Shown here: piece after piece, positions 26,362 through 55,409 of the stretch
Position numbering within the stretch: the first letter of the stretch is position 1
How the letters are laid out: each line of letters starts with the position of its first letter
NCBI GenBank assembly: GCA_017394835.1
Contig: JAFPXD010000007.1
Span: 171,591 to 235,590 of the forward strand
DNA length: 64,000 nt
Origin: Clostridia bacterium
Lineage (GTDB): Bacteria; Bacillota; Clostridia; Christensenellales; CAG-138
Direction: 5' to 3'
Notes under the pieces: generated by a model
Told to the model about the DNA's origin: nothing
Databases searched by the model: none
The model's input: the letters and a program-made list of their open reading frames with translations, nothing else
Program-made: the position numbers and the translations under genes

Positions 26362-26371
26362 GAGATAGAAA

Positions 26372-27562: not shown

Positions 27563-27563
27563 A

Positions 27564-28283: not shown

Positions 28284-28342
28284 GCGATCAGCGCTGGTTT
28301 TTATAAGCCAAAGCCCATCTATATGTCATTAAGGAGAAAACG

Positions 28343-29044: not shown

Positions 29045-30515
29045 AACCTCTATTATCTCAAGAGTTTGGGGGATGTGTAACCCTCTGCGTGACGACGGCG
29101 TTTCCTACGGCGATTATCTGGAGCAGCTTACCTATCTCATCTTTCTTAAAATGTCGGATGAGTATTCCAAGCCGCCGTATAACAAAAAGACCGGCATTCC
29201 CGAGGGCTGCGGCTGGACGGATATGAACACCCTCACCGGCGCGGAGTTGGAAGCGCAGTACAAAAAGACGCTTGAAACGCTTGGCGGACAGGGCGGCATA
29301 CTCGGCCAGATATTCCAAGGGGCGATCAACAAGGTCTCAAACGCCGCGATACTCTACCGCATCGTGCAGATGATCGACCGCGAAAAGTGGGTATCCATGT
29401 CCTCGGACGTAAAGGGCGAGATCTACGAGGGTCTGCTGCAGAAGAACGCCGAGGACGTGAAATCCGGCGCAGGGCAGTACTTCACGCCCCGCGCGCTGAT
29501 ACAGGCAATGGTCGCCTGCATCCGTCCGGAGCCTATGAAGACCATCGCGGATCCCTGCTGCGGCAGCGGCGGCTTCTTCCTCGCGGCGCAGGCGTTCCTT
29601 GCCGATCCCGCTAATTATTCGCTCGACCGCGATCAGAAGGAGTTTTTGAAGAACGGCACGTTCTACGGAAATGAGCTTGTCGCCTCCACCTTCAAGCTCT
29701 GCCTGATGAATCTGTATCTGCACAACATCGGCGATATTTACGGCGCCGTGCCCGTTACCCGCGGGGATTCGCTGCTGACCGATCCGGGCTACCGCGTGGA
29801 TTACGTGCTGACAAACCCGCCGTTCGGCAAGAAATCCTCCCTCACGTTCACCAACGAGGAAGGCGAGCAGGAGGAGGAAGACCTCGTCTATAACCGTCAG
29901 GATTTCTGGACGACAAGCAGCAATAAGCAGCTCAATTTCGTACAGCACATCAATACGATATTGAAAGCGACGGGCAAGGCCGCCGTAGTCGTGCCGGATA
30001 ATGTGCTGTTCGAGGGCGGCGCGGGCGAGATCGTCCGCAAAAAGCTGCTGCAGACCACCGACCTGCATACGATCCTGCGTCTGCCCACCGGCATCTTCTA
30101 CAAGCCCGGCGTAAAGGCGAACGTCATTTTCTTTGACAAGCGCCCCGCCGGCCCCGAAATGCAGACTAAGACCGTTTGGATCTATGATTTCCGCACCAAC
30201 GTCCACTTCACGCTGAAGCAGAACCCGATGCAGTATTCCGATCTGCAGGAATTCATCGCCTGCTATCACCCGGAGAACCGCTTTGAGCGCACCGAAACAT
30301 GGAGCGAGGATAATCCCGACGGCCGCTGGCGCAAGTTCGATATTGCGGAAATACTTGGGCGGGACAAGACCAGCCTCGATATCTTCTGGATCAAGGACAA
30401 ATCCCTTGCGGATCTGGATAATCTGCCTTCGCCCGACGTGCTCGCCGATGAGATCATCGAAAACCTGCAAAGCGCGCTGGAAAGCTTCCGGGAGCTGAAA
30501 GCCCAGCTGAAATAA
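29034..30515 (+). CDS. hsdM: Type I R-M DNA methyltransferase subunit (locus 1)
   Basis: The start is moved to ATG 29034, preceded by GGGAGG. SAM motif I is IADPCCGSGGFF and motif IV is LTNPPFGKK. Confidence 0.9.
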   Translation: MSNETSIISRVWGMCNPLRDDGVSYGDYLEQLTYLIFLKMSDEYSKPPYNKKTGIPEGCGWTDMNTLTGAELEAQYKKTLETLGGQGGILGQIFQGAINKVSNAAILYRIVQMIDREKWVSMSSDVKGEIYEGLLQKNAEDVKSGAGQYFTPRALIQAMVACIRPEPMKTIADPCCGSGGFFLAAQAFLADPANYSLDRDQKEFLKNGTFYGNELVASTFKLCLMNLYLHNIGDIYGAVPVTRGDSLLTDPGYRVDYVLTNPPFGKKSSLTFTNEEGEQEEEDLVYNRQDFWTTSSNKQLNFVQHINTILKATGKAAVVVPDNVLFEGGAGEIVRKKLLQTTDLHTILRLPTGIFYKPGVKANVIFFDKRPAGPEMQTKTVWIYDFRTNVHFTLKQNPMQYSDLQEFIACYHPENRFERTETWSEDNPDGRWRKFDIAEILGRDKTSLDIFWIKDKSLADLDNLPSPDVLADEIIENLQSALESFRELKAQLK

Positions 30516-38770: not shown

Positions 38771-38907
38771 AGTAGCCGAAGACAAAAACCACCACCAGCT
38801 GGCACTGGCGGTGGTATAGGGTAAAATCAGTAGTTTACCCTGCGCTCCTTCAAGCATTCTTATCATAGCATATCTGCTGCGCTTTGTCAATTTCTACTGG
38901 AGAAAGG

Positions 38908-39180
38908 ATGCAAAAAAGCATGGCGTTTTCAAGCAGCGTAATAGCTGCAGCTTGGCAGCGTTCCGGCGGCAGATGTGAATGTTGCCGTACTACTTGCGGA
39001 CATGGTTCCCGACGTTGCAACAAAGTCTTGAACTGGTATGCACGCGGTAACGATTATGCATCGGGCGGTTGGGAAGCACACCACAAAACCGCAGTAGCTT
39101 CTGGTGGAAGCGACACACTCTCTAATTGCGAGATTCTGTGTATCGCCTGTCACAAGAACACACGTACATACGGACGGTAA
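38908..39180 (+). CDS. HNH endonuclease-domain protein (90 aa)
   Basis: GGAGAAAGG precedes ATG 38908. The HNH core is GGWEAHHKTAVASGGSDTLSNCEILCIACHKNT, with additional CxC/CxxC Cys residues. Confidence 0.75.
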   Translation: MQKSMAFSSSVIAAAWQRSGGRCECCRTTCGHGSRRCNKVLNWYARGNDYASGGWEAHHKTAVASGGSDTLSNCEILCIACHKNTRTYGR

Positions 39181-39234
39181 TCACCGGTTGGCGGGCAGCG
39201 CAAACCTGCCCGCCAATATCCAGGAGGTTGAATC

Positions 39235-40362
39235 ATGTTTGATCCGAAACAACCATATAACGAACTGCCGCTGATTTCAACACTCGAAATCGACGTTTCT
39301 ACTGGTCTTGGAAAGCTTGCAGAGGATACTAGGGTTGCAGTCGAGATTCTGAATTACGCAGTTAAAACATTGCCTGATCATAACATCCTTTTGGATACAC
39401 TCGCGCTCCAAGAAGCACGGGCCAGCAGTAATATCGAAAACATAGTAACAACAAATGATGATCTGTATCGGGGCGTCGTCTTTGAAGACTTTACGGCGGA
39501 GGCAAAAGAAGTCAGCTGCTATAAAGATGCTTTGTTTGCCGGTTATACCCGGATGCTGGATAAAGGCCTAATCTCAACCAGTGATATCGAAGCAATCAAT
39601 GCGCCGGTGAATCATAAACAACCTGGGATCCGGACGAACCTTCCGAATTTCAATGACCTTACCAGGATAGAGAATCGCAAATCTAATGGAGAGAGTGAGA
39701 TAATCTACACGCCGCCGCATGGCATTGATCTCCTTCACAGATTGCTAATTGATATGTTGGACTTCGTTTATGATGATGACACATACTCTCTTCATCCACT
39801 GATAAAAATAGCTTTAGCCCACTATCAATTTGAAAGCATCCACCCGTTCCGGGATGGAAATGGCAGAACTGGGCGTATTTTGAATATCCTCTTCCTTTGT
39901 CAAAAAGGTTATCTGGATTCGCCAATCCTATATGCCAGTTCTTACATTATCAGAAATAAAAATCTCTATTACGATCTTTTGCGAGTATCCAAGGAAACGG
40001 AAAAATACGAGCCCATCGTAGAATTTATGCTTCGCTCGTTCAAGGAAACCGCCGAAGAGACATTGAGAATTGTCGAAAGCATACGGGCGCTGATCACGCA
40101 GTATTCGGACAAGGAATACCTCTCGACGCTAAAAGGTCAGATCGAACCGCTGCAAAACACGGTCGAGGCAATCTTCAAAAAGGTCTATGTCCGGGTTGCG
40201 GATCTTGTGGAACTGGGCATCCACCGGCAGACAGCCGCAACTTATCTTGACCAGTTCGTTGACCAGGGCCTACTGAGCAAAGAGCGTGTTGGCCGGGATA
40301 ACATCTATAAAAACATCAAACTGCTTGAGCTGTTTGATTACGATAGTGAGGAAACGAAATGA
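39235..40362 (+). CDS. Fic-family protein (AMPylase-type, class II auto-inhibited)
   Basis: The canonical active site is HPFRDGNGRTGR. The N-terminal inhibitory motif SSNIEN matches (S/T)xxxE(G/N). There is a C-terminal winged-helix-like tail. The stop overlaps the hsdM start (ATGA). Confidence 0.9.
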   Translation: MFDPKQPYNELPLISTLEIDVSTGLGKLAEDTRVAVEILNYAVKTLPDHNILLDTLALQEARASSNIENIVTTNDDLYRGVVFEDFTAEAKEVSCYKDALFAGYTRMLDKGLISTSDIEAINAPVNHKQPGIRTNLPNFNDLTRIENRKSNGESEIIYTPPHGIDLLHRLLIDMLDFVYDDDTYSLHPLIKIALAHYQFESIHPFRDGNGRTGRILNILFLCQKGYLDSPILYASSYIIRNKNLYYDLLRVSKETEKYEPIVEFMLRSFKETAEETLRIVESIRALITQYSDKEYLSTLKGQIEPLQNTVEAIFKKVYVRVADLVELGIHRQTAATYLDQFVDQGLLSKERVGRDNIYKNIKLLELFDYDSEETK

Positions 40363-42098
40363 ATAACACTGCTCTGACTGCTGACGTAACCAGCAAAGTC
40401 AATCTTGTAAAAAGCATTGCAAACAAGACTCGCGGGCCGTACACTCCGGAGAAGTACGGCAGCGTCATCATCCCCATGGCGATCATCCGCCGGTTTGACT
40501 GCATCCTGGCCGAGAAAAACGCCGACATCGAAAAGATCCTGCAGGCCGCCTCCAAGGTCAAAGGTATGACGCCTGATAAACTGGAGGAAATGGTCAAGCG
40601 TTCCTGCGGCGTGCCGTTCTATAACGCAAAGTGCGTCTCTCTGGAACAGCTGGTTGGAGACAGCGACAACCTCAATTCCAATTTCCTGGAATTTATCGCC
40701 GCATACTCACCCAGCATTCAAAGGATCCTGCAGAGTCTGAAATTCCGCGAGGAAGTGGAGTTCATGATTAAGAAGGGCATCTTGTTCGAGGTTGTAAAGG
40801 CCTTCTCGGAAGTTGACTTCCACCCCTCCACCACAAGCCCCATGGCTATGGGTTATATCTTCGAAGAGATCATCCGCACCTATAAGGCCAATGCCGAGGC
40901 CGGTGATCATTACACCCCCCGTGAGGTCATCGAACTTTGCATTGATCTGATGCTCAGCGAGAACGTGGACAGTCTGAAAAAAGAGGGCAAGATCATTCGC
41001 ATCTATGACGGATGCTGCGGTACCGGCGGCATGTTGACTACAGCTAAGCGCATGCTTACCGATCCGGAGGAGGGCTTCAATATCCGTGCCGATAACATTC
41101 GCCTTTACGGTCAGGACAACAACCCGGAGGCGTACGCGGTCTGCCAGGCGGAAATGCTGATGCTGGGCGACGATCCCGCCTATATTCGTGAGGGCAACAC
41201 CCTTACAGAGGACCAGTTTCCGGGAGAGAAATTTGACCTGCTGATCACCAATCCTCCTTTCGGCGTAGAGTGGAAAACGGAAAAGAGCACGGTGGAAAAA
41301 GAGCTCAAGCAGCCCAACAACCGCTTTGTGGCTGGGACACCCCGCGTCAGCGACGGGCAGCTTCTTTTCCTGCAGAATCTGTTAGCCAAAGCCGAGGATG
41401 ACGCCCGCGTGGCCATTATCTTGAATGGTTCTCCGCTGTTTTCAGGCGATGCCGGCAGCGGGGAGAGCGAGATACGCCGCTATGTACTGGAGAACCATCT
41501 GCTTGAAGCAATCGTTGCGCTTCCGGACCAAATGTTTTATAACACAGGCATCTATACCTATATCTGGATTCTGTCCAAAACGCCCAATCGCAAGCGTAAT
41601 AAGCAGATCCAGCTCATCGATGCAACCAAGGAGTTCATTCCTCAGCTTCCGAAATCGCTAGGCAATAAACGCAAATTCATCGACGAAGCAAATCGAAAGT
41701 CAATTGTCGCGGAATACCGCGCCGCACAGCAGTCAGAGATCAGCAAGTTCTTTGACGCGAACGACTTTGGCTATACCAAGGTGACGATGGAATGTCCGCT
41801 GTATGACGAGAAGGGCAACAAAGTCATCAAGCGGGGTGTAGTGCAGGTGGATCCCAAGCGGCGTGATACAGAGATCATCCCGCTCAAGCGGGACATCGAT
41901 GCATATATCAAGGCGGAGGTCCTGCCCTATGTACCCGACGCTTTCCCCGACCGCAGCAAGGACAAGATCGGCTATGAAATTCCCTTCACCCGGTATTTCT
42001 ACAAATATACGCCGCCTCGCAAGAGTGAGGACATCCTCAAAGAGATCATCGCCAACGAAGAAGAGCTGCAGCAGACCCTGAAGGTGGTGCTCAGCTAA
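40359..42098 (+). CDS. hsdM: Type I R-M DNA methyltransferase subunit (locus 2)
   Basis: Motif I is YDGCCGTGGML and motif IV is ITNPPFGVEW. 579 aa. Confidence 0.9.
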   Translation: MNNTALTADVTSKVNLVKSIANKTRGPYTPEKYGSVIIPMAIIRRFDCILAEKNADIEKILQAASKVKGMTPDKLEEMVKRSCGVPFYNAKCVSLEQLVGDSDNLNSNFLEFIAAYSPSIQRILQSLKFREEVEFMIKKGILFEVVKAFSEVDFHPSTTSPMAMGYIFEEIIRTYKANAEAGDHYTPREVIELCIDLMLSENVDSLKKEGKIIRIYDGCCGTGGMLTTAKRMLTDPEEGFNIRADNIRLYGQDNNPEAYAVCQAEMLMLGDDPAYIREGNTLTEDQFPGEKFDLLITNPPFGVEWKTEKSTVEKELKQPNNRFVAGTPRVSDGQLLFLQNLLAKAEDDARVAIILNGSPLFSGDAGSGESEIRRYVLENHLLEAIVALPDQMFYNTGIYTYIWILSKTPNRKRNKQIQLIDATKEFIPQLPKSLGNKRKFIDEANRKSIVAEYRAAQQSEISKFFDANDFGYTKVTMECPLYDEKGNKVIKRGVVQVDPKRRDTEIIPLKRDIDAYIKAEVLPYVPDAFPDRSKDKIGYEIPFTRYFYKYTPPRKSEDILKEIIANEEELQQTLKVVLS

Positions 42099-42126
42099 CA
42101 TTAGGCTAAGACAAAAGGAGATACAG

Positions 42127-42903
42127 ATGTCATTAATCATTACGATCCATGTTGAAGAAGGCATCGTTATGGCTAGCGATAGCCGAACGACTTTCAATAC
42201 ACAAGATTTTAGCCCGCTTCCTGATGGAAAAGGTGCAATTATTACTAAGTACCAAGGTGTTCATTATTCAGATACGACATATAAGACTTTTTTAGCTCCG
42301 AACAGCACAGGCATTTCAACATGCGGAGCCGCTGCTATCAACGGGAAGCCGTTGACAGGGTATGTTGAAAAGTTCATACATAACTCTATTCAAAAAGACA
42401 CTGATATCTGTGATGTTCCCGCGCTCCTTCTTGCACATTTTAGAAGCTATGTTCCGATTCCTGATATTGTCTTTCAAGTGGCGGGCTATTCAAAAACTGG
42501 AACCACATCTGTGCAGAAAGTGTATAGAGTTTTTGTAATGGCCAACCGCATTGACGAACTTGATACTTCCTCCCAGGGTGCGGCATGGAACGGTGAGACC
42601 GAAATCCTGTCAAGGATCATCAATTCATTGTGGACGCAGAAAAAAGGAAAAGATCAAAAAACGGGTGAAGAAATCGTCCTGTATGACGAATTAAAGGCTC
42701 CCCCTATACCTTGGAATTTCTTTTCTCTCCAGGATGGAATTGATTTTGCTACATACGCCATTAATACGACTATAGAAACCATGCGATTCCAAGAACGGCT
42801 AAAAACTGTTGGTGGTCCCATTGATATTCTGATTATCAAGCCAGATGGTGCATTTTGGGCCTCCCATAAAACCCTCCACGTGCGAGGAAAGGGGAAACGA
42901 TAA
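42127..42903 (+). CDS. Proteasome-beta/HslV-like Ntn-hydrolase-fold protein with Ser at position 2, embedded in R-M locus 2
   Basis: MSLIITIHVEEGIVMASDSRTT aligns with the mature TTIVGVxxxxGVVLAADxRxT, which puts Ser1/Asp17/Arg19 at canonical positions. Later blocks follow in order: YKTFLAPNSTGISTCGAAA, IVFQVAGYSK, AAWNGETE and KTVGGPIDILIIKPDG. Confidence 0.55.
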   Translation: MSLIITIHVEEGIVMASDSRTTFNTQDFSPLPDGKGAIITKYQGVHYSDTTYKTFLAPNSTGISTCGAAAINGKPLTGYVEKFIHNSIQKDTDICDVPALLLAHFRSYVPIPDIVFQVAGYSKTGTTSVQKVYRVFVMANRIDELDTSSQGAAWNGETEILSRIINSLWTQKKGKDQKTGEEIVLYDELKAPPIPWNFFSLQDGIDFATYAINTTIETMRFQERLKTVGGPIDILIIKPDGAFWASHKTLHVRGKGKR

Positions 42904-42905
42904 CT

Positions 42906-44198
42906 ATGCGAGCCATGAAAGACAGTGGGATCGAATGGATCGGTGCAATTCCGCAAAACTGGGAGCTGCGAAAAATCAAGACCAACTTTGACATAATTGC
43001 CGGAGCAACGCCGAAAAGCGGTGAGGCAAGTTTTTGGGATGGCGATATTCCTTGGATCACCCCTGCCGACTATACGACCGAAGGTGTATATGTCTCTGCC
43101 GGTCATAAAAGCATTACGCAGGATGGCTTGAACTCCTGCGCAACAAGTCTCATTCCGGAAGGTAGCATCATTTTTTCCAAACGTGCTCCCGTGGGGCTTG
43201 TGGCCATTAACAGCAACTCTCTCTGCACCAATCAAGGTTGCCTATCCTGCGTCCCGAAAGATTCGGTTGATGCGAAATACTATTATTATGTCATGAGCAT
43301 TTATGGCGAACAGTTTGATCTGTTTGCCTCGGGAACCACATTTAAGGAGATTTCGGCAGACGCTTTTGCAAACTTCAAACTTCCATATCCGGATTATGAG
43401 ACGCAGAAGCGGATCACGTCATTCCTCGACACTAAATGTGCCGAGATTGATGCGCTGATTGCCGCAAAGGAAAAGACCAACGCGCTGCTGAAAGAGCGGC
43501 GGCAGAGCATCATCTATGAGGCGGTCACCAAAGGCCTTGATCCCACCGTGCCCATGAAGGATAGCGGCGTTGAATGGATCGGAGAGATCCCAGAGGGTTG
43601 GAAAATTACAGCATTAAAAAGGTTGGGAACACCGGCAACCGGTTCCACACCGTCAAAAGATAATGCCGATTATTGGGACGGCGATATTCCCTGGGTGTCT
43701 TCTAAGGATATAAAATCGGATTATCTCCTTGATTCCGAGGATCATATTACGCAAACCGCTGTTGATGAGTGCGGGCTTACGCTGTTCTCTTCTGGGGCTT
43801 TAATCTTTTGCGTTCGCTCCGGTATCCTTCGTCATACATTCCCGGTTGCTGTAGCAACAATCCCGGTTACGATCAATCAGGATCTCAGATCGCTTAGTAT
43901 GACCGGTGATGTCAATCCAGCCTTCGTGCTCTACTACATGAGGGGAATGAACGATATCATTGTAAGGCTCTATCAAAAAATAGGCGCAACAGTCGAGAGC
44001 ATCGAGATGGATTGGTTCCTATATTTCCCTGTAGTGTTGCCGACGCGTGAAGAACAGGATCGTATTGTTGAAGCGCTTGATTCAAGATGCACATCACTGG
44101 ATCACACAGTAATGCAGAATGAGGCTACCATTAGGCAACTGAAAGAATACCGACAAAGCCTGATCTACGAGGCGATTACCGGAAAAATAGAGGTGTAA
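42906..44198 (+). CDS. hsdS: Type I R-M specificity subunit (locus 2)
   Basis: The two TRDs each open with MKDSG(I/V)EWIG.IP..W. The conserved helices are LKERRQSIIYEAVTKGL and LKEYRQSLIYEAITGKI. Confidence 0.9.
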   Translation: MRAMKDSGIEWIGAIPQNWELRKIKTNFDIIAGATPKSGEASFWDGDIPWITPADYTTEGVYVSAGHKSITQDGLNSCATSLIPEGSIIFSKRAPVGLVAINSNSLCTNQGCLSCVPKDSVDAKYYYYVMSIYGEQFDLFASGTTFKEISADAFANFKLPYPDYETQKRITSFLDTKCAEIDALIAAKEKTNALLKERRQSIIYEAVTKGLDPTVPMKDSGVEWIGEIPEGWKITALKRLGTPATGSTPSKDNADYWDGDIPWVSSKDIKSDYLLDSEDHITQTAVDECGLTLFSSGALIFCVRSGILRHTFPVAVATIPVTINQDLRSLSMTGDVNPAFVLYYMRGMNDIIVRLYQKIGATVESIEMDWFLYFPVVLPTREEQDRIVEALDSRCTSLDHTVMQNEATIRQLKEYRQSLIYEAITGKIEV

Positions 44199-44199
44199 A

Positions 44200-45018
44200 A
44201 TGTTTAACGTGTACTATATCAATTATGCAAAAGCGTTTGAAATCACAATGCAAATGGATAATAAGATACTCGAACAGACTATAAAGGAAAGAGGCTGGGA
44301 TGTTTCTGCTAATGCACATGGAGAATTTGATGTAAAACAGTCCTTTCTAAACGCATTGTTTCCTAAGCTTTCTGCTTCATCCGATCTAAAAGGATCGAAA
44401 TCCAGCAAGACAACGGACACCATAAAAGTGGTTTCTACAAAATCCACCGTTCTATCTCCGATAGTAAAGAAGGCAACCGAGGTCAAGAAAATTGACGATA
44501 ACAAGATCGGGAATCTGATAAAAATCAAAAATGTTCAGTTAACAGTTCATAACGGGAATGACATGATGGCAGTAAAAGCACTCTTGAGCGGCTTTCTTGA
44601 TCAAATACCTGTCGAAGGACTTGGGCAGAAAGATCTTACAGGCCTTGCGGATGCATTTTTTAAAGGTGCATCATACATACTAACGGGGAAAATGCCCGAG
44701 AAAGTAAATACTGGTAAAAAAGGGGATCAGATTATTCTAAAGATCCCGATTCAGCTTGAGAATGAGATGGAATCTCAGTACAGTATTGCCGACATAGAGA
44801 TAGGTCCGGTTACAGTCATTGGTATCTATCGCGGGAAGCATAACGCCGGAGAAGTAAGAGCAAGAATGGACATGCTATCTGCATATAACGAACGTAAAAG
44901 TACAATCGAAATTGAGACGGCAGATGATGCAACCAATCCAGACAGAAAGGGCTTTGATGCAAAAGCAGAGATGCACTACATTGATGTAATTGCAGTTATT
45001 CAGGAATTGAATGTGTGA
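44200..45018 (+). CDS. Hypothetical 272-aa protein, DolA-like by position (partner of ClpB-like ATPase)
   Basis: It starts 1 nt after the hsdS stop. I recognise no catalytic motif. The assignment rests on the gene pair matching the published Dodola gene content (DUF6414 + ClpB-like), which I cannot verify without an HMM search. Confidence 0.4.
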   Translation: MFNVYYINYAKAFEITMQMDNKILEQTIKERGWDVSANAHGEFDVKQSFLNALFPKLSASSDLKGSKSSKTTDTIKVVSTKSTVLSPIVKKATEVKKIDDNKIGNLIKIKNVQLTVHNGNDMMAVKALLSGFLDQIPVEGLGQKDLTGLADAFFKGASYILTGKMPEKVNTGKKGDQIILKIPIQLENEMESQYSIADIEIGPVTVIGIYRGKHNAGEVRARMDMLSAYNERKSTIEIETADDATNPDRKGFDAKAEMHYIDVIAVIQELNV

Positions 45019-45028
45019 GGGTAAGTAT

Positions 45029-46216
45029 ATGGCAGGACTAACGCTATACACATACGATCGAAAAAACTGGGATGCTATCTCAGATACAATTAAGCTTGAA
45101 AACATAAAAGTGTTGACAGCACAGGAGATGAGCTATGTTGCTGTAATCAGAAACACCCCCAAGAAGGATGGAGAAGAAATTAAGATTCATCCGTTTAAAC
45201 ACGAGTATTATGATATTTCGTTGTTAATTTCAGGAGATAATGAAAGAGTCGATGTATGGAGTGGACATCTGATAACAGCTCTTCAACTTGCTGAAGAAGA
45301 TCACAACAAAAACAGGAAATTTATTGTTGACAAGAAATATGCAAGTGATATTCTCAGTGCTTTGTTTTATTTCTTTAGCGACAGTGCGCCATTGGAGAAG
45401 TTTCTAAAGCTGGATGACACGACAGTCACCAATATTGTGGATTGTGCGGACGAGACTATCGTTGGGCTGGGAATTTATCTCCAAGCCAATCTGTTCGGCA
45501 ATCCTAAATTCAAAACCAGATTGATACAAGAGCTAAAGCGATTTCGCTTGTTTAACAAGCTTGGAGAAAGAAAAGTCTTTTCAGCGTTTGTATGCGGGCC
45601 AAGCGGCATTGGCAAAACATTAACAGCAAAGCTGTTGCATGATTTCCTTGCGCCGAATGAAAGATACATCAAGATTAATCTTGGAAATTACAGCGATCAT
45701 AATGCGTTAAGCAGTCTTATAGGAAGTCCACGAGGATATGTTGGAAGCAGTAAAGGGGAACTGTCAAGCAAGATAGCAGAGAGCAAGTCCACTGTTATTC
45801 TGATTGATGAATTTGAGAAAGCAAGTCAGGAGGTGCATAATTTCTTTCTCGAGTTGCTTGCAGATGGTAAGTTTACAGATTCTCAGGGTAGAGAATATGA
45901 TTTGAATAAGTACATCATCATCTTTACTTCTAATATTGATGAAAACGAATTCAACAGAAAGATCCCTCCGGAGCTGCGATCTCGCTTTGACTTGGTTTAT
46001 AAAATGGTTCTGCTATCGAAAGAAGAAAAAACAGCTTATATTCAGTATAAAACCAACTATTATGTAGAACAAGCCAAAGAGATGATGGGTATTTCTCTTG
46101 AGTCGGACAGCATTATCGCCAATATGGGAAGCAAAGTAATGAGCTTGGATAATATCAGGTTTATTACAAGAGAGATTGAGCAGTATATAGCTGCTGCTGT
46201 AGAAGAAAAACAATAA
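45029..46216 (+). CDS. ClpB-D2-like AAA+ ATPase (DolB-like)
   Basis: It has Walker A VCGPSGIGKTLTAKLL, the Clp-type IGSPRGYVGSSKGELS, Walker B VILIDEFEKA, GKFTDSQGREYDLNKYIIIFTSN (sensor 1) and PPELRSRFD. An alternative start is at 45011. The about 180-aa N-terminal region is unassigned. Confidence 0.75.
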   Translation: MAGLTLYTYDRKNWDAISDTIKLENIKVLTAQEMSYVAVIRNTPKKDGEEIKIHPFKHEYYDISLLISGDNERVDVWSGHLITALQLAEEDHNKNRKFIVDKKYASDILSALFYFFSDSAPLEKFLKLDDTTVTNIVDCADETIVGLGIYLQANLFGNPKFKTRLIQELKRFRLFNKLGERKVFSAFVCGPSGIGKTLTAKLLHDFLAPNERYIKINLGNYSDHNALSSLIGSPRGYVGSSKGELSSKIAESKSTVILIDEFEKASQEVHNFFLELLADGKFTDSQGREYDLNKYIIIFTSNIDENEFNRKIPPELRSRFDLVYKMVLLSKEEKTAYIQYKTNYYVEQAKEMMGISLESDSIIANMGSKVMSLDNIRFITREIEQYIAAAVEEKQ

Positions 46217-46266
46217 TTCCCCACCGCCGAGGGTGCCAGACCTCGGAGAGAAAAGGAGGAATCAAT

Positions 46267-49215
46267 ATGGCAGAATCGGATCTTCGGGAAAACCCCTTCC
46301 GGGACGAGATCTATGATTACTTTCTCGCCCATGGCTATGTAGCCGGTCAGAAGGCAGACTATGACTATAAGCACGCTCTGGACGTCAGCAAGCTGTTTGC
46401 GTTCCTGGAAGCGACCCAGTCCAAAGAGCTTGCCAGGTTAAAGGAAACATACGGTTCCCGTTATCAGGAACGGTATGTGGAGCTGCTGTGCCAAAAAATC
46501 GAAAACCGCGGACTGCTGACTGCCCTTAATGAATGGGTTGAGGATTACGCAAGCGGGACGAAATTCAGCCTTGCCTTTTTCAAGTCAGGGCTGAGTGCAA
46601 TGTCCGAAGGACTTGAGCTTTATAAGAAAAACGTGTTCTCGATCCGAAAGGAGTTCAGCTTTGAGGACAAGGCCGATCCCTACCGGGTAGACCTTGCGAT
46701 GTTCTTGAACGGCATTCCCATTGTGATGATCGAGCTGAAAAAGCAGACAGCCGGGCAAAAGGCAGTCTTTGAGGGAACAAAGCAATTCCGGACGACGCGC
46801 AATCCGGACGAACTGATATTCTCCTTTAACCGCCGCACGCTGGCATACTTCACTTTGGATGAGTTTGCGGCATTTCTGACCACACGGCTGGACCGAAAGG
46901 AAACCAAGTTCCTGCCTTTCAACCGTGGATCAGACGATGAAGGTGCAGGCAATCCCGTTGTTCCGGGCAAGCACAGCACCTGCTATGTTTGGGAAGATAT
47001 CCTTCAGCGGGATATGCTGCTGCGCATCATTCGGGAGTTCATGTTTATCGACGATGAGGGGGCCATGATTTTCCCTCGCTTTCACCAACTTCGGGCAGTC
47101 CTGCGCTGTGAACAGGATGTGCAGAAAAACGGAGTCGGCGGACGCTACCTTATCTGGCACAGCGCCGGCAGCGGCAAGACGAAGACCATCGCTTGGCTGG
47201 CGAAGCGGATGATCAACCATCCGGAAATCAACACGGTCATCGTTATCAGCGACCGCACGGTCATTGACGGACAGTTAGGCGCTGAGCTGATGAACGTTGA
47301 TGGAAAAAAAGGCGTGGCGCAGCATATCGATACGACCTCTAAGGATCTGCTGAAAAAGCTGAATGACGGCGGCTATATTATCGTAACAACGCTGCAGAAA
47401 TTCAGACCGATCCTGAGTGAAATCAAACAGCACGAGGATCGCAATTACGCCATTATTATTGATGAAGCTCATTCCTCTACCGCAGGCAAGTCCATGTCCA
47501 AGGCGTCTGAAACCCTGACCGGCAAGTCTTTAAAGGAGGCGGTCGAACTGGATGATATATATGAAGATCTGGAAGATGGGCAGAATCAGCTGATTCGGGA
47601 CGGAGCGGCCATTCGCAGCACTCGCAACGTCAGCTACTTTGCCTTTACCGCTACGCCTAAGAAGGAGACCATGGAGCTCTTCGGTACGCGCACGGAAATA
47701 GGTAAGACGTATTTTGACAAATATTCCATGAAGCAGGCAATCGAGGAACGCTTTATTCTCAACCCGTTGCTCTGTTATACTTCGTATCGGGACTTCTATC
47801 GCGTTGAAAAGAAGAAGGAAGATGATAACGAATATGACAGTGCAAAAGCGCAGGCGGCGATCCTTAATTATGTGACGTCCTCTGATGAAGTGATCCAAAC
47901 GAAAACGGAGATCATGTTGAGCGATTTCATCGAGCGTCGCCAGACCTGGCTTGAGGGAAGATCGAAAGCCATGATTATTACGCCTTCCCGCAAACATGCC
48001 GTATGCTATAAATTAGCCATAGATGAGTATCTGAAAAAGCGTGGCTGTGGGTTCCGCTCTTGTGTTGCCTTTACCGGCACGATCGAGCTTGACGGCATCA
48101 AGTTCACTGAAGAGCAGATGAATAAGGATTATCTTGAACACGGTGTACCTTATGATATCAAATCGATCATTCATAAAAACGACGACTGCAGGATTATAAT
48201 CGTCGCCGACAAGCTGCAGACGGGCTTTGACGAAGATGCTCTTTGTGTCATGTATATTGACAAAAAGCTGAACAGCAGCGTAAAGGCTGTTCAGACAATA
48301 TCGCGTTTGAATCGTACAGCTCGCAACAAGCGCACCTTCGTAATGGATTTTATAAACGATCCTGATATGATCCGGGCTTTCTTTACACAGTATTACGGCG
48401 GTGAACTGTACCTTCCCACCGAGAACGAGACTGATCCGAACATCCTGTTTGCGAAACGGGATCATATTCTGGATTATTGTGTTGTAACGCTTTTAGATGC
48501 ACAGAAGATTTACAGCTTGATTTCTTCCAATGAAGAAAACGGTGGCGAATTGACATCGATGATTGCCAGCATTTCCCGCAATTACCGCGCTCTTGAGCCG
48601 GATCTCAGGAAAGCTTTTGCTCTGGAATTGGATAAATTTGGGAAGCTGTTCTACTATATCTCTGCTGTTTATAATGTATGGAATCGAGATATGGAGCAGT
48701 TGGCGGTTGTCTTTAGTGTCCTGTACAACGTACTTTATGAGAAAGAGGTTACACCTGATATTGATGCCTCCGAACTCGTTGAACTAGTCGAATACTCAAC
48801 CAAGCTGTCCCAGGAAGAATTCACGATTTTTCTATCTGCGGAAGATCAGGCATTTAACGGCATTTCAACGGATGTTACTGCTGCGGATAGAACTATGTCG
48901 GTGATCGATGAGATCATCGAAAAGTTTAATCTTCGCTATGCACACGCAGACGAGGAGATAGGCAATATAATAACTGAGCTTAGCAGTGATAAGGATCTAC
49001 AGTCTAACGTGCAGAATAGTAGTACTAGTGCGTATGAGGCTGCAGTGGCAGAACGCCTCTCGTCTCGTATTATGGATGGCTTATTCGACGGAACAGTTAA
49101 CGGAGAAACGGAGAAGGCAGAATTTTACACTGAATTGAGTGAGAACACCTCAGCACTGATTCAAATCCGCAATTCGATTATTCGAAAGATCAAGGATCTC
49201 TTGCTGGCGAGTTGA
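46267..49215 (+). CDS. hsdR: Type I restriction enzyme R subunit (locus 2)
   Basis: AAGGAGG RBS. It has Walker A WHSAGSGKTKT, the DEAH-type IIIDEAHSS and motif VI QTISRLNR. 982 aa. Confidence 0.9.
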   Translation: MAESDLRENPFRDEIYDYFLAHGYVAGQKADYDYKHALDVSKLFAFLEATQSKELARLKETYGSRYQERYVELLCQKIENRGLLTALNEWVEDYASGTKFSLAFFKSGLSAMSEGLELYKKNVFSIRKEFSFEDKADPYRVDLAMFLNGIPIVMIELKKQTAGQKAVFEGTKQFRTTRNPDELIFSFNRRTLAYFTLDEFAAFLTTRLDRKETKFLPFNRGSDDEGAGNPVVPGKHSTCYVWEDILQRDMLLRIIREFMFIDDEGAMIFPRFHQLRAVLRCEQDVQKNGVGGRYLIWHSAGSGKTKTIAWLAKRMINHPEINTVIVISDRTVIDGQLGAELMNVDGKKGVAQHIDTTSKDLLKKLNDGGYIIVTTLQKFRPILSEIKQHEDRNYAIIIDEAHSSTAGKSMSKASETLTGKSLKEAVELDDIYEDLEDGQNQLIRDGAAIRSTRNVSYFAFTATPKKETMELFGTRTEIGKTYFDKYSMKQAIEERFILNPLLCYTSYRDFYRVEKKKEDDNEYDSAKAQAAILNYVTSSDEVIQTKTEIMLSDFIERRQTWLEGRSKAMIITPSRKHAVCYKLAIDEYLKKRGCGFRSCVAFTGTIELDGIKFTEEQMNKDYLEHGVPYDIKSIIHKNDDCRIIIVADKLQTGFDEDALCVMYIDKKLNSSVKAVQTISRLNRTARNKRTFVMDFINDPDMIRAFFTQYYGGELYLPTENETDPNILFAKRDHILDYCVVTLLDAQKIYSLISSNEENGGELTSMIASISRNYRALEPDLRKAFALELDKFGKLFYYISAVYNVWNRDMEQLAVVFSVLYNVLYEKEVTPDIDASELVELVEYSTKLSQEEFTIFLSAEDQAFNGISTDVTAADRTMSVIDEIIEKFNLRYAHADEEIGNIITELSSDKDLQSNVQNSSTSAYEAAVAERLSSRIMDGLFDGTVNGETEKAEFYTELSENTSALIQIRNSIIRKIKDLLLAS

Positions 49216-49260
49216 ATATAGAATATTTGGACAAAAGTTTGGGAAAGACTATCATAATAC

Positions 49261-49291
49261 GAGGCTCGGAGTAACTCTCCGTGCCTCTTTT
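49261..49291 (+). terminator. Rho-independent terminator after hsdR (locus 2)
   Basis: The hairpin gaggcTcggag-taact-ctccgTgcctc (5+5 bp with one internal mismatch) is followed by TTTT. Confidence 0.6.
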
Positions 49292-49351
49292 CATAATCGT
49301 GACAGTTTTGTCAAGTTTGGACAGATCGGTACAAAACTTTTCAAAAAGGTA

Positions 49352-49405
49352 TTGACAGTGGATAGTGGGGCATGTATAATATGTATGCTAATGAAACATA
49401 TGTTT
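49352..49405 (+). promoter_or_regulatory. Consensus sigma-70 promoter plus Cheo/SOS-box-like palindrome upstream of the LexA-family gene
   Basis: TTGACA at 49352-49357, a 17-nt spacer, then TATAAT at 49375-49380. The perfect palindrome AAACATATGTTT lies at 49394-49405. Its core AACATATGTT equals the centre of the Bacillus-type box CGAACATATGTTCG. Confidence 0.7.
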
Positions 49406-49423
49406 TATTTAATCGGAGGTGGC

Positions 49424-50020
49424 ATGAGAAGCAAGGATAAGACGCTAATGGCCGCAATAGAGCGGTTCGTGTGCGAATACGCGGACAGGCACGGCTACTC
49501 CCCTTCGATGCAGGAGATCGCCGAAGGAGTGGGAAGCTCCAAGCCCACGGTGTATAGGTACATCAGCCAGATGAACCGTGACGGCATACTGGAGTATTCA
49601 GGTGTGAGGAACGTTCACTCCGCAAAGGATAACCCAAGCGCTGCGAGAGTCGGGATACCGGGACGTGTTGCGTGCGGTCTTCCGAGGTTGGCAGAGGAGA
49701 ATATAGAGGAGTACGTTAAGCTTCCTGTATCGTTATTCGGCGAAGGACCCTTCTATCTGCTTACCGCAAGCGGTGATAGTATGATCGAAGCCGGAATCGA
49801 CGACGGAGACTGGGTGCTCGTAAGGCAGCAGGATACCGCCGAACCCGGAAAAATCGTCGTCGCTCTCATTGGGGACGAAGCCACTCTCAAGCGCTACTAC
49901 CCCGAGCCGGAGAATCACCGGATCAGGCTCCACCCGGAGAACCGTACGATGGAGGATATTTACGTCGACTCCTGCGAGATACAGGGTGTCGCGGTAAGTG
50001 TATTCAAGGATCTGACATAA
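49424..50020 (+). CDS. LexA-family repressor (winged-helix + S24 self-cleaving peptidase)
   Basis: GGAGG precedes ATG 49424; the track start at 49352 lies inside the promoter. It has the LexA-type N-domain GYSPSMQEIAEGVGSSKPTVYRYISQMNRDGIL, the cleavage-site-like VACG, the catalytic Ser in SGDSM and the catalytic Lys in EATLKRY. Confidence 0.8.
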   Translation: MRSKDKTLMAAIERFVCEYADRHGYSPSMQEIAEGVGSSKPTVYRYISQMNRDGILEYSGVRNVHSAKDNPSAARVGIPGRVACGLPRLAEENIEEYVKLPVSLFGEGPFYLLTASGDSMIEAGIDDGDWVLVRQQDTAEPGKIVVALIGDEATLKRYYPEPENHRIRLHPENRTMEDIYVDSCEIQGVAVSVFKDLT

Positions 50021-50034
50021 GGAGGCAAGAAGAA

Positions 50035-50223
50035 TTGGAAGACGGCGTTAAGCTGTACGCCTGCTGCCCGAGATGCGGCAGGCAGATCTGTAAGGCAAAG
50101 ACATGTGACGGAATGGAACTGAGCTGCTCGAAATGCGGAGCGGACCTTCGTATTACGGTTGACGAGAACTGCCGCGTAGAGGTCGAGCTGCTCCGATACG
50201 AGCGGGAACGCAAACGGGCTTGA
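50035..50223 (+). CDS. Small zinc-ribbon protein (Mu Com-like)
   Basis: 62 aa with two CxxC pairs (CPRCGRQ..CSKCGAD). TTG start with GGAGG 9 nt upstream. Confidence 0.45.
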   Translation: MEDGVKLYACCPRCGRQICKAKTCDGMELSCSKCGADLRITVDENCRVEVELLRYERERKRA

Positions 50224-50689
50224 TTTAAAAAACAACTGAATACATACTCCGCTGTGCATTGAAGCGACGGACTCGGCATGAACCGTTAGGATCGTCGTGC
50301 ACGGGGAGGATCTGTTAAGGGATGGGACTTGGCTGTGAATCAAGAGGCTTCCGACAGATAGCTTATCCAAGGGATAGGTCTATCGTCGGGGGCTTTTGAT
50401 TTGTGAATCACATTTCGGGTATGGTGCCAAACACGCCGTTTTGGGCATCACAGGGCAGAACGGTGATGCCGCCGTGATGCCAAATTGATACCCGTGAATG
50501 GCTTTGCAAGCATCGCCTCTGTCATGACAAAGGCCGCATGCCTGCGGTGGACAATTGCCCGGATGTTATTGCCGGCAATTGTCCTTGCAAGCATGGGATT
50601 TGTGTCCCCAAATCCGCGCTTGCAAAGACTCCGCCCTTGGACCTCATGCCGCTCAGCGGGAAAAGAACGATAATAAACCGGAGGTATAA

Positions 50690-51010
50690 ATGAGAAACAG
50701 ACAGTATGAAACGCATTTGCGGCTGAACGAAAAAGAACAGAAAAAGCTTGACGAGCTCGCAAAGAAGGCCGGCGTCACCAAGTCGGCGGTGTTAAGAAAG
50801 CTTATCATGGGCACGGAGATCAAGGAGCGCCCGAACGTCGATTTCATCGACCTTATTCAATCGATCGACCATCTGGCAATAAACGTCAACCAGATAGCGC
50901 ATCATGCAAATATGCAGGGCGGTATCACCGTGGAGGAGGCTGCCGAGGCAAAACGATTGGTAACGGAGATACGCAGACGGCTGTATTCGAGGAGGGATAT
51001 TTTCGGCTGA
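50690..51010 (+). CDS. MobC-family mobilisation (relaxosome accessory) protein
   Basis: The ribbon-helix-helix-like RLNEKEQKKLDELAKKAGVTKSAVLRKLI and the conserved NVNQIAHHAN block fit the family. GGAGG RBS. Confidence 0.7.
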   Translation: MRNRQYETHLRLNEKEQKKLDELAKKAGVTKSAVLRKLIMGTEIKERPNVDFIDLIQSIDHLAINVNQIAHHANMQGGITVEEAAEAKRLVTEIRRRLYSRRDIFG

Positions 51011-51029
51011 GCATCGTCCCCATGAAGGA

Positions 51030-52409
51030 ATGAAGCATAATACGATAAGACAAGGAGACAGAACATTGAAATTTCCCGAAGCAACAAAAGATGAAAAACG
51101 AAGCATTCGTTTTACGCGGAACAAGCTCGTAAAGTGCAAGGACGAAAAACCCCTGAGCAGCATATCGAACTTCGTGACGGTCCTTGAAAACGATCCGAGG
51201 CTCGCTGGCGCTATTAGGCTCAATGAGATGAGCGGCAGGATACATATAATCAAACCGCTTGGCTGGAAAAGGGAGGAAAACGGCGCGATCACCGATACCG
51301 ATATAAACTGCATCCGCTTGCTCATAGAGCAGACCTATGGCCTCACAGGAGAAAAACCCGCAATATCGGCTATTGATATAGTCGCTAATGAGAACCGCTA
51401 TCATCCGATACGCGATCTGCTCTTTTCCTTCAAATGGGACGGCAAAGAACGCATACGGTACGTGCTTCATCACTTTCTAGGAGCCGAGGTAAACGATTTC
51501 AATTACGAGTGTATGAAGCTGTTCCTGCTCGGAGGTATAAGCAGGATAATGACGCCCGGTTGCAAGTTCGATTATATGCTCTGCCTGATCGGCGACCAGG
51601 GAGCGGGCAAATCGACCTTCTTTAGGAAGCTCGCCCTGCGCGACGAGTGGTTCACGGATGACATCAAGCGCCTTGATGATGAAAACGTCTATCGCCGACT
51701 GGAGGGGCATTTCATAATCGAAATGCCGGAGATGAGCGCCATAGCCAACACACGCACAATTGAAGAAACCAAGGCGTTCATCTCCCGGGCGAAGGATACA
51801 TACAAGGTCCCGTATGACCGTCTGCCTAAGGACCGTCCCCGCCAGTGCATATTCGGCGGCAGCGGGAACCGTGTGGCATTTCTTCCGCTCGACAGATCGG
51901 GAAACAGAAGGTTCCTTCCGATACTCATCGACATGTCAAAAGCCGAGGTGCATATCCTCGAGGATGAAGCCGAAAGCGAGCGTTACATTGAGCAGGTCTG
52001 GGCGGAAGCGGTCATGCTCTATTGCTTGGGCGAGCCGGTACTTAAGCTCTCCGAGGAGGATCAAAAGGAGCTTACGAAAATCCAACGTTATTTCATGCCC
52101 GAGGACGACCGTCTGGGTGTGATAGCCGGCTTCCTTGCCAAAACGAATGAATCGAGCGTATGCTCCCGTATGCTCTACAAAAAGGCGTTCGGCCGCGATG
52201 ACGAACCCAAGCATTGGGAGCTGCAGGAGATAACCGAGATCATGAACGCAGGTATCGCATCAAAGGAAATAGTCGGCTGGAAGAGATGTGATGACGTCAG
52301 GCACTTCCATGATTACGGCAAGCAGCGCTGCTGGGAGCGAGTTTCCGATAAAGAACCCGAATTCACCGAGATCCAATGTGAATTGCCCGAGGGTCTATTC
52401 GATGATTAA
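51030..52409 (+). CDS. VirE/VapE-family P-loop protein (primase-helicase-associated)
   Basis: It has Walker A LIGDQGAGKSTFF and a Walker-B region FIIEMPEM. The 459-aa architecture matches virulence-associated protein E family members on mobile elements. Confidence 0.75.
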   Translation: MKHNTIRQGDRTLKFPEATKDEKRSIRFTRNKLVKCKDEKPLSSISNFVTVLENDPRLAGAIRLNEMSGRIHIIKPLGWKREENGAITDTDINCIRLLIEQTYGLTGEKPAISAIDIVANENRYHPIRDLLFSFKWDGKERIRYVLHHFLGAEVNDFNYECMKLFLLGGISRIMTPGCKFDYMLCLIGDQGAGKSTFFRKLALRDEWFTDDIKRLDDENVYRRLEGHFIIEMPEMSAIANTRTIEETKAFISRAKDTYKVPYDRLPKDRPRQCIFGGSGNRVAFLPLDRSGNRRFLPILIDMSKAEVHILEDEAESERYIEQVWAEAVMLYCLGEPVLKLSEEDQKELTKIQRYFMPEDDRLGVIAGFLAKTNESSVCSRMLYKKAFGRDDEPKHWELQEITEIMNAGIASKEIVGWKRCDDVRHFHDYGKQRCWERVSDKEPEFTEIQCELPEGLFDD

Positions 52410-52507
52410 CCTTCCTCCCAGTAGGCAAAAAGGGTTGATCATATGGTAACAGTAACGGTAACAAGCACCAAAAAAGAAAAATATGGCGTGTAAAGAAATA
52501 GGGTTAT

Positions 52508-53401
52508 ATGGCCGTGTTTCCAGTTACCGTTACCGGCGGCACGGCGGAAAGGAATAAAAGATTGAAGGAAATAGGCATTACAGAATTAAAGCCCTTTGAG
52601 GGGCATCCGTATAAGGTCAGGGACGATAATGAAATGGACGCCCTTGTTGACAGCATCCGCGAACATGGGATAATGACTCCGCTTATCGTGCGGCGCGTTA
52701 ATGACGGATATGAGATCATTAGCGGGCACAGGCGCGCTCATGCTGCGGAGCTGGCGGGGCTTGCGACCGTTCCTGTTATTGAAATGGAGTTGAACCGTGA
52801 CGAGGCCGCGGTGATGCTCGTTGACAGCAATCTTCACCGGGAGCATATCCTTCCGAGTGAAAAGGCGTTTGCGTATAAGCTGAAATCGGAAGCCTTGGAG
52901 CATCAGGGCAAAAGCTTAACTTCGGGACAAGTTGTCCCGAAGTCGGACGGGAACAGGACGACGGCGGCTATCGGTGCGCAGACAGGCGAAAGCTACAAGA
53001 CCGTACAGCGCTATATCCGCCTGACGCATCTTCTCCCGGCTCTGCTAGAAATGGTCGATTCTGAGCGTATAGCGTTTTCGGTGGGCGTAGAGCTTTCATT
53101 CCTCGATCCCGAGCTTCAGGCCGCGCTCGTTACATCTATCGGGGTCAACGACTGCACGCCATCATATGCCCAGGCAAACCGTATGCACAAGGCTGCTGTT
53201 GCCGGAGAGCTCGACGAGGAAATGCTTTTTGCCATTATGGAGGAAGAAAAGCCCAACCAGCGGGAGAAAGTCAGCATATCGACCGACGAGCTCCGCCGTT
53301 ATCTTCCCAACGCCACGCCCTCCGAAATGCAGGCGTTCGTCCGTAAGGCTTGCGAACATTATTCCGCTTTCCTCAAAAAGAACCGCGAGGAGGTGCGATA
53401 A
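52508..53401 (+). CDS. ParB/Srx-domain protein
   Basis: The ParB N-terminal box is PLIVRRVNDGYEIISGHRRAHAA, followed by an HTH-like region. Confidence 0.8.
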   Translation: MAVFPVTVTGGTAERNKRLKEIGITELKPFEGHPYKVRDDNEMDALVDSIREHGIMTPLIVRRVNDGYEIISGHRRAHAAELAGLATVPVIEMELNRDEAAVMLVDSNLHREHILPSEKAFAYKLKSEALEHQGKSLTSGQVVPKSDGNRTTAAIGAQTGESYKTVQRYIRLTHLLPALLEMVDSERIAFSVGVELSFLDPELQAALVTSIGVNDCTPSYAQANRMHKAAVAGELDEEMLFAIMEEEKPNQREKVSISTDELRRYLPNATPSEMQAFVRKACEHYSAFLKKNREEVR

Positions 53402-53404
53402 ACA

Positions 53405-55352
<1,948 letters not shown>

Positions 55353-55373
55353 CCGATTTTGGACATAAGAAAA

Positions 55374-55409
55374 GCGAGTATTGACGTTAAATCCGTTGTC
55401 AATACTCGC
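55374..55409 (-). terminator. Rho-independent terminator of tRNA-Leu
   Basis: The perfect 12-bp stem gcgagtattgac / gtcaatactcgc has a 12-nt loop. It starts 2 nt after the tRNA CCA end and is followed by TTTTCTTA on the minus strand. Confidence 0.75.

Follow-up and report, generated by a model that had tools for sequence, protein, structure and literature searches.

A PDC-M37 gene pair related to Dodola as a candidate defence cassette within a Type I restriction-modification operon of a Clostridia bacterium

Background

The defence system Dodola, reportedly described by Millman and colleagues in 2022, is said to pair DolA, a DUF6414 protein, with the ClpB-like DolB. Cloned as two genes, Dodola confers protection in B. 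subtilis, S. thermophilus, and L. cremoris, and its integration into the chromosome leads to a growth cost. A second two-gene family, PDC-M37, corresponds to cassette CAS_00135 (FAM_01269>>FAM_01309) of Payne, Hughes, Fineran & Jackson 2024 (bioRxiv 10.1101/2024.01.29.577857), who assembled 145 candidates by "guilt-by-embedding" in Type I restriction-modification (RM), BREX, and DISARM loci. Since the family was defined from embedded genes, nesting between hsd genes is itself the published discovery criterion of PDC-M37. Here, two adjacent genes, A and B, are analysed, which lie between hsdS and hsdR of a Type I RM operon of a Clostridia bacterium (assembly GCA_017394835.1); the stretch of DNA under analysis, referred to below as the window, comprises 64,000 nucleotides of contig JAFPXD010000007.1 (positions 171,591 to 235,590, forward strand). 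The nested pair is a correct but largely known observation, being a new instance of a catalogued candidate family. It probably represents an autonomous PDC-M37 (Dodola-like) candidate defence cassette, acquired horizontally as cargo of the hsdS-hsdR junction on a mobilisable element. This reading is based on family membership, the pairing of A with B, intact AAA+ and pore-loop motifs in B, a restriction-rich and mobile neighbourhood, and a foreign base composition.

Results

Family assignment

Gene A (44200-45018, + strand) encodes a 272-aa protein that aligns over its full length with the PADLOC hidden Markov model (HMM) PDLC04604 of PDC-M37A (residues 1-272 on 4-288 of 289, E-value 9.3e-87). 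Gene B (45029-46216, + strand) encodes a 395-aa AAA+ ATPase and matches PDLC04606 of PDC-M37B (residues 11-400 on 4-386 of 390, E-value 1.6e-113). B starts at 45029, shortly after the end of A at 45018 and on the same strand, and the order A>>B fits the PDC-M37 cassette FAM_01269>>FAM_01309. Judged by these profile matches, A-B is a member of PDC-M37, a catalogued candidate anti-phage system. Order, strand, and Type I RM embedding agree with the published family, and both HMMs are matched full length. Nothing material separates the window copy from it; this copy is of an uncultured Clostridia type and resides on a mobilisable element, and genes for SoFic, an HNH protein, and a proteasome-like product are further components of its operon. 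An initial annotation of the window had regarded the two genes as Dodola-like and proposed a PADLOC run; a defence-family match is indeed obtained for both proteins, the label, however, being PDC-M37 and not Dodola.

The family of A is a small one. According to a search of a 5.8-billion-protein collection, B has 2801 homologues, and A has 179 relatives when the collection is clustered at 90%; among 1.84 billion proteins, A is represented by 314 clusters at 50%. With 179 A and 2801 B homologues, the A-B family is thus far beyond chance.

Relation to Dodola

In overall design the pair resembles Dodola, both consisting of two genes, with a small protein followed by a single-module ClpB-D2-like ATPase of ~375-395 aa. 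The initial annotation had made its proposal depend on a match between the ATPase and DolB, and a partial match of this kind is obtained (E-value 4.7e-30), second to that of PDC-M37B, which scores 275 bits more. It covers residues 153-397 alone, and the N-terminal domain of window B does not align to DolB. In a Halobacillus plasmid relative (L047), in contrast, the alignment of B with DolB runs from one end to the other (4-388 on 4-367 of 375). A tblastn search of B on plasmids recovered this further PDC-M37 pair, not Dodola.

As for A, the DUF6414 membership suggested for the 272-aa protein was not borne out. Window A gives no match to DUF6414 (PF19952) even at E<=10 and none to the PADLOC DolA HMM at E<=0.01, and thus lies below every DolA and DUF6414 threshold. 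Relatives of A, however, do show the connection. Of 5027 PADLOC models, DolA is the sole non-M37 family matched by representatives of the A family (20/105, best E-value 7e-9), with alignments that are collinear and near full length, if weak, and DUF6414 is matched by 6 of 38 A relatives (best 3.3e-7). PADLOC keeps the two families apart. An independent survey found proteins in certain B. cereus genomes that are labelled both Dodola by DefenseFinder and PDC-M37 by PADLOC. By profile comparison, PDC-M37 is a distant sister family of Dodola, and the relationship is one of remote homology, not membership. The description of the locus as a two-gene Dodola-like module nested in a Type I RM operon therefore stands, while strict Dodola membership does not. 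The families also differ in that Dodola is backed by phage-protection data, PDC-M37 being a candidate system.

Protein B

B residues are numbered from start 45029, and all motifs below lie on the + strand. The Walker A motif GPSGIGKT (45596-45619) occupies residues 190-197, of which G190, G193, G195, K196, and T197 are invariant in 34 homologues. It is followed by the GYVG loop (45734-45745, residues 236-239; consensus GY[VI]G), with G236 and G239 invariant, which corresponds to the substrate-threading loop of Clp/Hsp100 D2. Walker B, VILIDEFE (45794-45817), comprises residues 256-263 with D260 and E261 invariant, and sensor-1, IIFTSN, residues 297-302. The PPELRSRFD block (45965-45991, residues 313-321) aligns with RPEFINRID of ClpC and contains the invariant putative arginine finger R319. 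Taken over the whole ATPase module, the residues invariant across the 34 homologues include K196, D260/E261, N302, R319, and R377. All blocks that had been quoted initially as signs of a Clp/Hsp100 D2 module are present and could be mapped to canonical AAA+ elements.

Database and structural comparisons agree with the motifs. B matches Pfam AAA_2 with an E-value of 6e-26 and the D2 domains of ClpC, ClpB, and Hsp104 chains from PDB with E-values of ~1e-26, the alignment starting at residue ~134. The AlphaFold2 model of B has a predicted local distance difference test score (pLDDT) of 86 and superposes on the isolated nucleotide-binding domain 2 of ClpB (4fd2_A) with a root-mean-square deviation of 3.0 Å and a template modelling score (TMt) of 0.72. 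The assignment of B to the Clp/Hsp100 D2 type holds on Pfam, PDB-chain, and AlphaFold2 evidence. Assignment as a sigma-54 enhancer-binding protein was considered and rejected: the Sigma54_activat match (1.8e-9) reflects generic AAA+ similarity, no DNA-binding domain is present, and Clp D2 scores far higher.

B shares with the D2 domains of ClpB, ClpC, ClpA, and Hsp104 both Walker motifs, GYVG, the sensor-1 Asn, the Arg finger, and the sensor-2 Arg. In contrast to these proteins, it has one AAA+ module and is devoid of D1, the Clp_N domain, the M-domain, and the ClpP loop. The PDB-chain alignment and a motif scan here agree with the initial annotation, which had noted the absence of the first AAA module, the M-domain, and the ClpP loop. 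No IGF/VGF-type tripeptide is found in B downstream of Walker A, the sole [ILVM]G[FL] sequence being VGL145 upstream of it, and in the alignment B lacks the ~25 residues (668-691) that ClpC has between its sensor-1 and Arg-finger blocks. The N-terminal region, previously estimated at ~180 aa, is shorter (~130 aa), as Clp homology begins at residue ~134. Residues 1-~130 form a private alpha/beta domain with invariant residues of its own (Y9, D62, R73, W77, and E123), and a profile of this domain (1-135) has zero PDB matches and no Pfam match.

According to the ClpB equivalog TIGR03346 (NCBIfam), B reaches 102 bits against a cut-off of 1232, and the match covers D2 alone. On the evidence of this score and of its architecture, which is not the two-module one, B is not a housekeeping Clp. 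The concern that the ATPase might cluster with housekeeping Clp paralogues is answered by this score and by the PADLOC search, where the defence models PDC-M37B and DolB give the best matches.

Protein A

Regarding A, no family was found in Pfam or NCBIfam, DUF5689 remaining below the cut-off with an E-value of 0.006. A sequence-profile search of PDB returned nothing usable (RPA32, E-value 0.13). The AlphaFold2 model is of low confidence (pLDDT 60), with residues 22-79 disordered, and a Foldseek comparison of this model with PDB and BFVD gives no match with an E-value <0.03. A theme of oligonucleotide/oligosaccharide-binding fold, MCM-N, and SSB recurs among the hits, but it is non-significant (E-value >=0.036, TM ~0.2) and, like the RPA32 match, is a hint at most.

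Pairing and decay in other loci

The comparison included 36 genome loci together with metagenome loci, all from Bacillota (mostly Clostridia, some Bacilli), of which 37 are non-redundant. In every locus with an intact A and a contig that extends beyond it, B-homologous sequence follows 3' of A on the same strand. The adjacency is kept down to ~25% identity and includes long-form variants with N-terminal extensions on both proteins. A-B pairing is obligate.

Many copies are decayed. B is truncated in L004 (10828-11157) and L014 and frameshifted in L008 and L012, and in L035 and L036 A is truncated and B lost. Decay of one partner is typical of costly defence genes and is consistent with a fitness cost.

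Some loci contain unusual variants or neighbours. L060 (172-2989) carries a long-form pair with A of 427 aa and B of 513 aa, both having extra N-terminal regions, and in L059 (1648-3885) a 745-aa A with a 460-aa N-terminal extension lies beside putAbiC and a SEC-C/Upx-like giant protein. The hsdS-hsdR junction of L005 (7151-8766) encodes, beside A-B, a 349-aa unclassified protein and a ThsB-TIR-like protein, and that of L033 (6843-9958) an AAA_21 (AbiEii/OLD-like) ATPase and three unclassified open reading frames (ORFs).

Association with restriction systems

Type I association is found in ~7 of the 37 non-redundant loci. The nested order hsdS-A-B-hsdR is present in L004, L005, L017, L033, and L043; L006, a contig fragment, shows A-B-hsdR only, and L009 has the pair attached behind hsdR-hsdM-hsdS. 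The window clade, including L052, adds Type I cases, and in the A tree the Type I-associated loci do not group together but occur in scattered places. The 135 proteins that flank the pair in the 37 loci include EcoRI-like methylase and endonuclease (5), Type I (5-6), GmrSD (5), HNH (4), and MmeI (2-3) proteins, accompanied by AbiEii-like ATPases (3), TnpV (6), and resolvase (3). In other loci the pair stands alone beside relaxase or recombinase genes.

These positions bear on the possibility that A-B is an accessory of the restriction system that acts on the restriction enzyme, instead of an independent defence. As a PrrC-like guard, it would be kept inactive by the Type I complex until anti-restriction proteins of a phage attack the enzyme and thereby set it free. 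As a restriction-alleviation device, it would remodel or unload HsdR, letting a mobile RM system establish itself in an unmethylated host; host ClpXP reportedly acts on EcoKI HsdR in restriction alleviation, an observation attributed to Makovets and colleagues in 1999. The order hsdM-hsdS-A-B-hsdR recurs at separate positions of the A tree (the window clade, L017, L043, and L033/34, with the appended pair in L009), and A starts 1-14 nt past the hsdS stop in several Type I loci. Moreover, divergence of the Hsd proteins keeps pace with that of A and B: the identities of HsdM, HsdR, A, and B are 84, 78, 68, and 61% in L005, and 42, 34, 41, and 46% in L043, respectively. Outside Type I loci, the pair is most often located 3' of a restriction system on the same strand. 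Coupling, if true, would explain both the position right upstream of hsdR and the preference for restriction neighbours of several types.

The frequency of Type I genes, however, speaks against coupling, as just the ~7 loci named above have them and many pairs stand alone beside relaxase or recombinase genes. PrrC-type guards, which serve as a benchmark, are almost exclusively embedded in Type I RM systems, and A-B falls short of this. Unrelated cassettes at the same junction fit an insertion hotspot, homologous Dodola protects as two genes cloned alone, and the composition of A-B (codon third-position GC content, GC3, of 0.39) differs sharply from that of the hsd genes. Accessory action on the restriction enzyme is thus considered quite unlikely.

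The preferred reading, an autonomous cassette carried as cargo, has described parallels. PrrC in EcoprrI and TgvAB in V. cholerae VPI-2 (PMC11411939) are likewise foreign cassettes placed between hsd genes in the same direction, and TgvAB (PMC11411939) also comprises two genes and functions independently of the Type I enzyme. In contrast, their proteins are unrelated to A-B, PrrC being an ABC-ATPase anticodon nuclease and TgvAB a GmrSD-like Type IV enzyme. PrrC further differs in being almost always embedded and regulated by the RM complex, whereas A-B is embedded in a minority of loci. The data indicate that the hsdS-hsdR junction is an insertion hotspot collecting independent defence cargo, which in the window lies on a mobilisable element; this follows from the varied neighbours, the other cassettes at the junction, and the divergent GC3.

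Base composition and the mobile island

A GC3 of 0.39 is shared by A, B, and a 258-aa gene of the same operon (P258, 42127-42903), as compared with 0.68 for hsdM, 0.57 for hsdR, and 0.72-0.75 for host genes. The base composition of A-B is foreign. Scars of insertion and flanking repeats were looked for around A-B, and an internal half-repeat of hsdS alone turned up.

The block of SoFic, Type I, and PDC-M37 genes belongs to a lower-GC island with approximate limits at window positions ~38800-55400. Further island genes encode an S24/LexA-like repressor (49352-50020), a MobC/NikA-like protein (50690-51010), a VapE-like primase (51030-52409), ParB (52508-53401), and a large serine recombinase (53577-55352). 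Most probably the island represents an integrative mobilisable element that entered behind an ATP-binding cassette (ABC) transporter operon. Phage carriage of A-B was also considered and rejected: the pair is found in 0 of 50,697 phage records and in one IMG/VR contig. On plasmids it is rare (4 of 72,556).

Such a location raises the question of whether the pair serves the mobile element or the cell and is not a defence system at all, for instance as a stress disaggregase like the plasmid-borne ClpK and ClpL, or in maintenance of the element or addiction to it. The pair is often cargo of mobilisable elements, beside relaxase, TnpV, and serine recombinases, the bulk of tblastn matches to B on plasmids are Clp paralogues such as ClpK and ClpL, and PDC-M37 is itself a candidate family. 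B, however, has one module, a private N-domain, and an obligate partner that is not a chaperone, and defence models outscore every Clp model by a wide margin in its matches. Its neighbours, moreover, are overwhelmingly restriction and Abi genes, not stress genes, and the homologous Dodola is a validated defence system. A role outside defence is accordingly regarded as unlikely.

Layout of the operon

The genes of the operon form a co-directional string on the + strand. At its head are a gene for an HNH protein (38884-39180; HNH/mREase_IV, 1e-7) and SoFic (39235-40362; PADLOC PDLC03963, 1e-88). They are followed by hsdM (40359-42098, 579 aa), which matches Pfam N6_Mtase (5e-56) and PADLOC MTase_I (1e-208), then by P258 and by hsdS (42906-44198 with the stop included, 430 aa; Methylase_S 9e-40, Specificity_I 3e-108). 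After A-B comes hsdR (46267-49215, 982 aa), identified by TIGR00348 (6e-61) and by HSDR_N/ResIII/SWI2_SNF2/T1R_D3 domains.

Genes around the insertion are tightly packed. The ORF map shows a gap of 1 nt between the hsdS stop and the start of A, as had been noted before, and the GAGGTG Shine-Dalgarno sequence of A lies within the 3' end of hsdS. The hsdR start is 50 nt 3' of B and is preceded by the ribosome-binding site AAGGAGG. For B, initially given as an ORF from 45029 or 45011 to 46216, both starts are present, 45011 being an alternative in-frame ATG. Start 45029, however, is better supported, with GAGGG 8 nt upstream, homologues of 394-395 aa, and gene callers giving 395 aa on identical metagenome contigs, and B almost certainly begins there rather than at 45011. 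Promoter and terminator scans performed no better than on shuffled sequences.

A second Type I RM locus is located at window positions 23611-30515 (+), with hsdR at 23611-26361, hsdS at 26372-27562, and hsdM at about 28968-30515. Its hsdS and hsdM enclose two ORFs of low GC (~0.40). The first (27546-28283, 245 aa) has C-terminal hydrophobic segments; the second (28343-29044, 233 aa) has the N-terminus YFAFMDLLGFKE, which recalls a nucleotidyl-cyclase motif. Neither has a PDB match.

The neighbour P258

P258, a second and independent embedded gene outside the A-B module, has no match in Pfam, PADLOC, or NCBIfam. The profile of its family matches solely proteasome beta, connectase MJ0548, and Anbu N-termini, with E-values of 0.009-2.6, and M1-S2, D18, and K53 are invariant or nearly so in the family, resembling the Thr1/Asp17/Lys33 triad. 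These features suggest that P258 is a putative Ser-nucleophile N-terminal nucleophile (Ntn) hydrolase. The proteasome fold originally ascribed to this product is plausible, resting on a weak proteasome-beta/connectase signature.

The initial annotation had gone further and proposed that unfoldase and protease act together, i.e., that B feeds substrates to P258 in a three-component proteolytic defence machine. The profile matches and the triad-like conservation just described speak for such a machine, P258, A, and B have equal GC3 values, and all three genes are found together once more in L052, with a P258 of 76% identity. L052, however, is the only other locus with all three. A further 37 A-B loci lack P258, among them the close relatives L004 and L005, in which A is 67-68% identical, and a 65%-identical P258 homologue belongs to a different Type I operon without A-B. 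Members with identity >=63% are embedded in two types of Type I operon and those with identity <=50% are found in housekeeping contexts. The families also differ in size (1154 proteins for P258 versus 179 for A in a similar search), and hsdS separates P258 from A-B. As for B, it has neither an IGF/VGF-type loop nor an HbYX-like C-terminus, ending in EEKQ. The co-occurrence that had been anticipated between A-B and the P258 family is thus not observed. Since P258 is gained and lost independently of A-B, and B has no ClpP-type loop, the unfoldase-plus-protease mechanism is unsupported and appears very improbable. In its own right, P258 is an uncatalogued "guilt-by-embedding" candidate.

Discussion

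According to the interpretation favoured here, A-B is an autonomous defence cassette, and its mechanism can be outlined as follows. B would assemble as a Clp/Hsp100-like hexamer and thread polypeptide through its GYVG pore loops, thereby unfolding or disassembling a target, with no degradation; remodelling rather than degradation is proposed because B has no ClpP-docking loop. A may be the dedicated partner of B and serve as a sensor or adaptor; in this role it would bring in a target that is of phage origin or phage-modified and would license B, as MecA does for ClpC. Alternatively, A could be an effector held in check by B. The cassette would act on its own as a second, non-restriction layer of defence, co-transcribed with the RM genes.

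Several points weigh against this interpretation. Payne et al. 2024 (10.1101/2024.01.29.577857) place PDC-M37 among untested candidates, and the mechanism of Dodola was still listed as unknown as late as 2025. A literature search on the mechanism of PDC-M37 or Dodola, and on experiments with PDC-M37, found nothing. The adaptor and effector roles of A are pure inference, since A has no recognisable fold. Finally, functional coupling, and not simple co-location, could underlie the strong bias to restriction neighbours and the repeated nesting just upstream of hsdR.

As both components are homologous between PDC-M37 and Dodola, studying the two as one superfamily suggests itself. The window pair is a compact, well-conserved representative from gut Clostridia with intact motifs and is a reasonable experimental entry point. 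The practical value of the finding is limited. Something new could be concealed in one feature alone, the recurrent placement beside restriction systems. If the proposed mechanism is true, an immune effector made up of a single-ring Clp-D2 unfoldase and its private partner would be unusual, since it would remodel proteins instead of cutting nucleic acid or depleting nicotinamide adenine dinucleotide.

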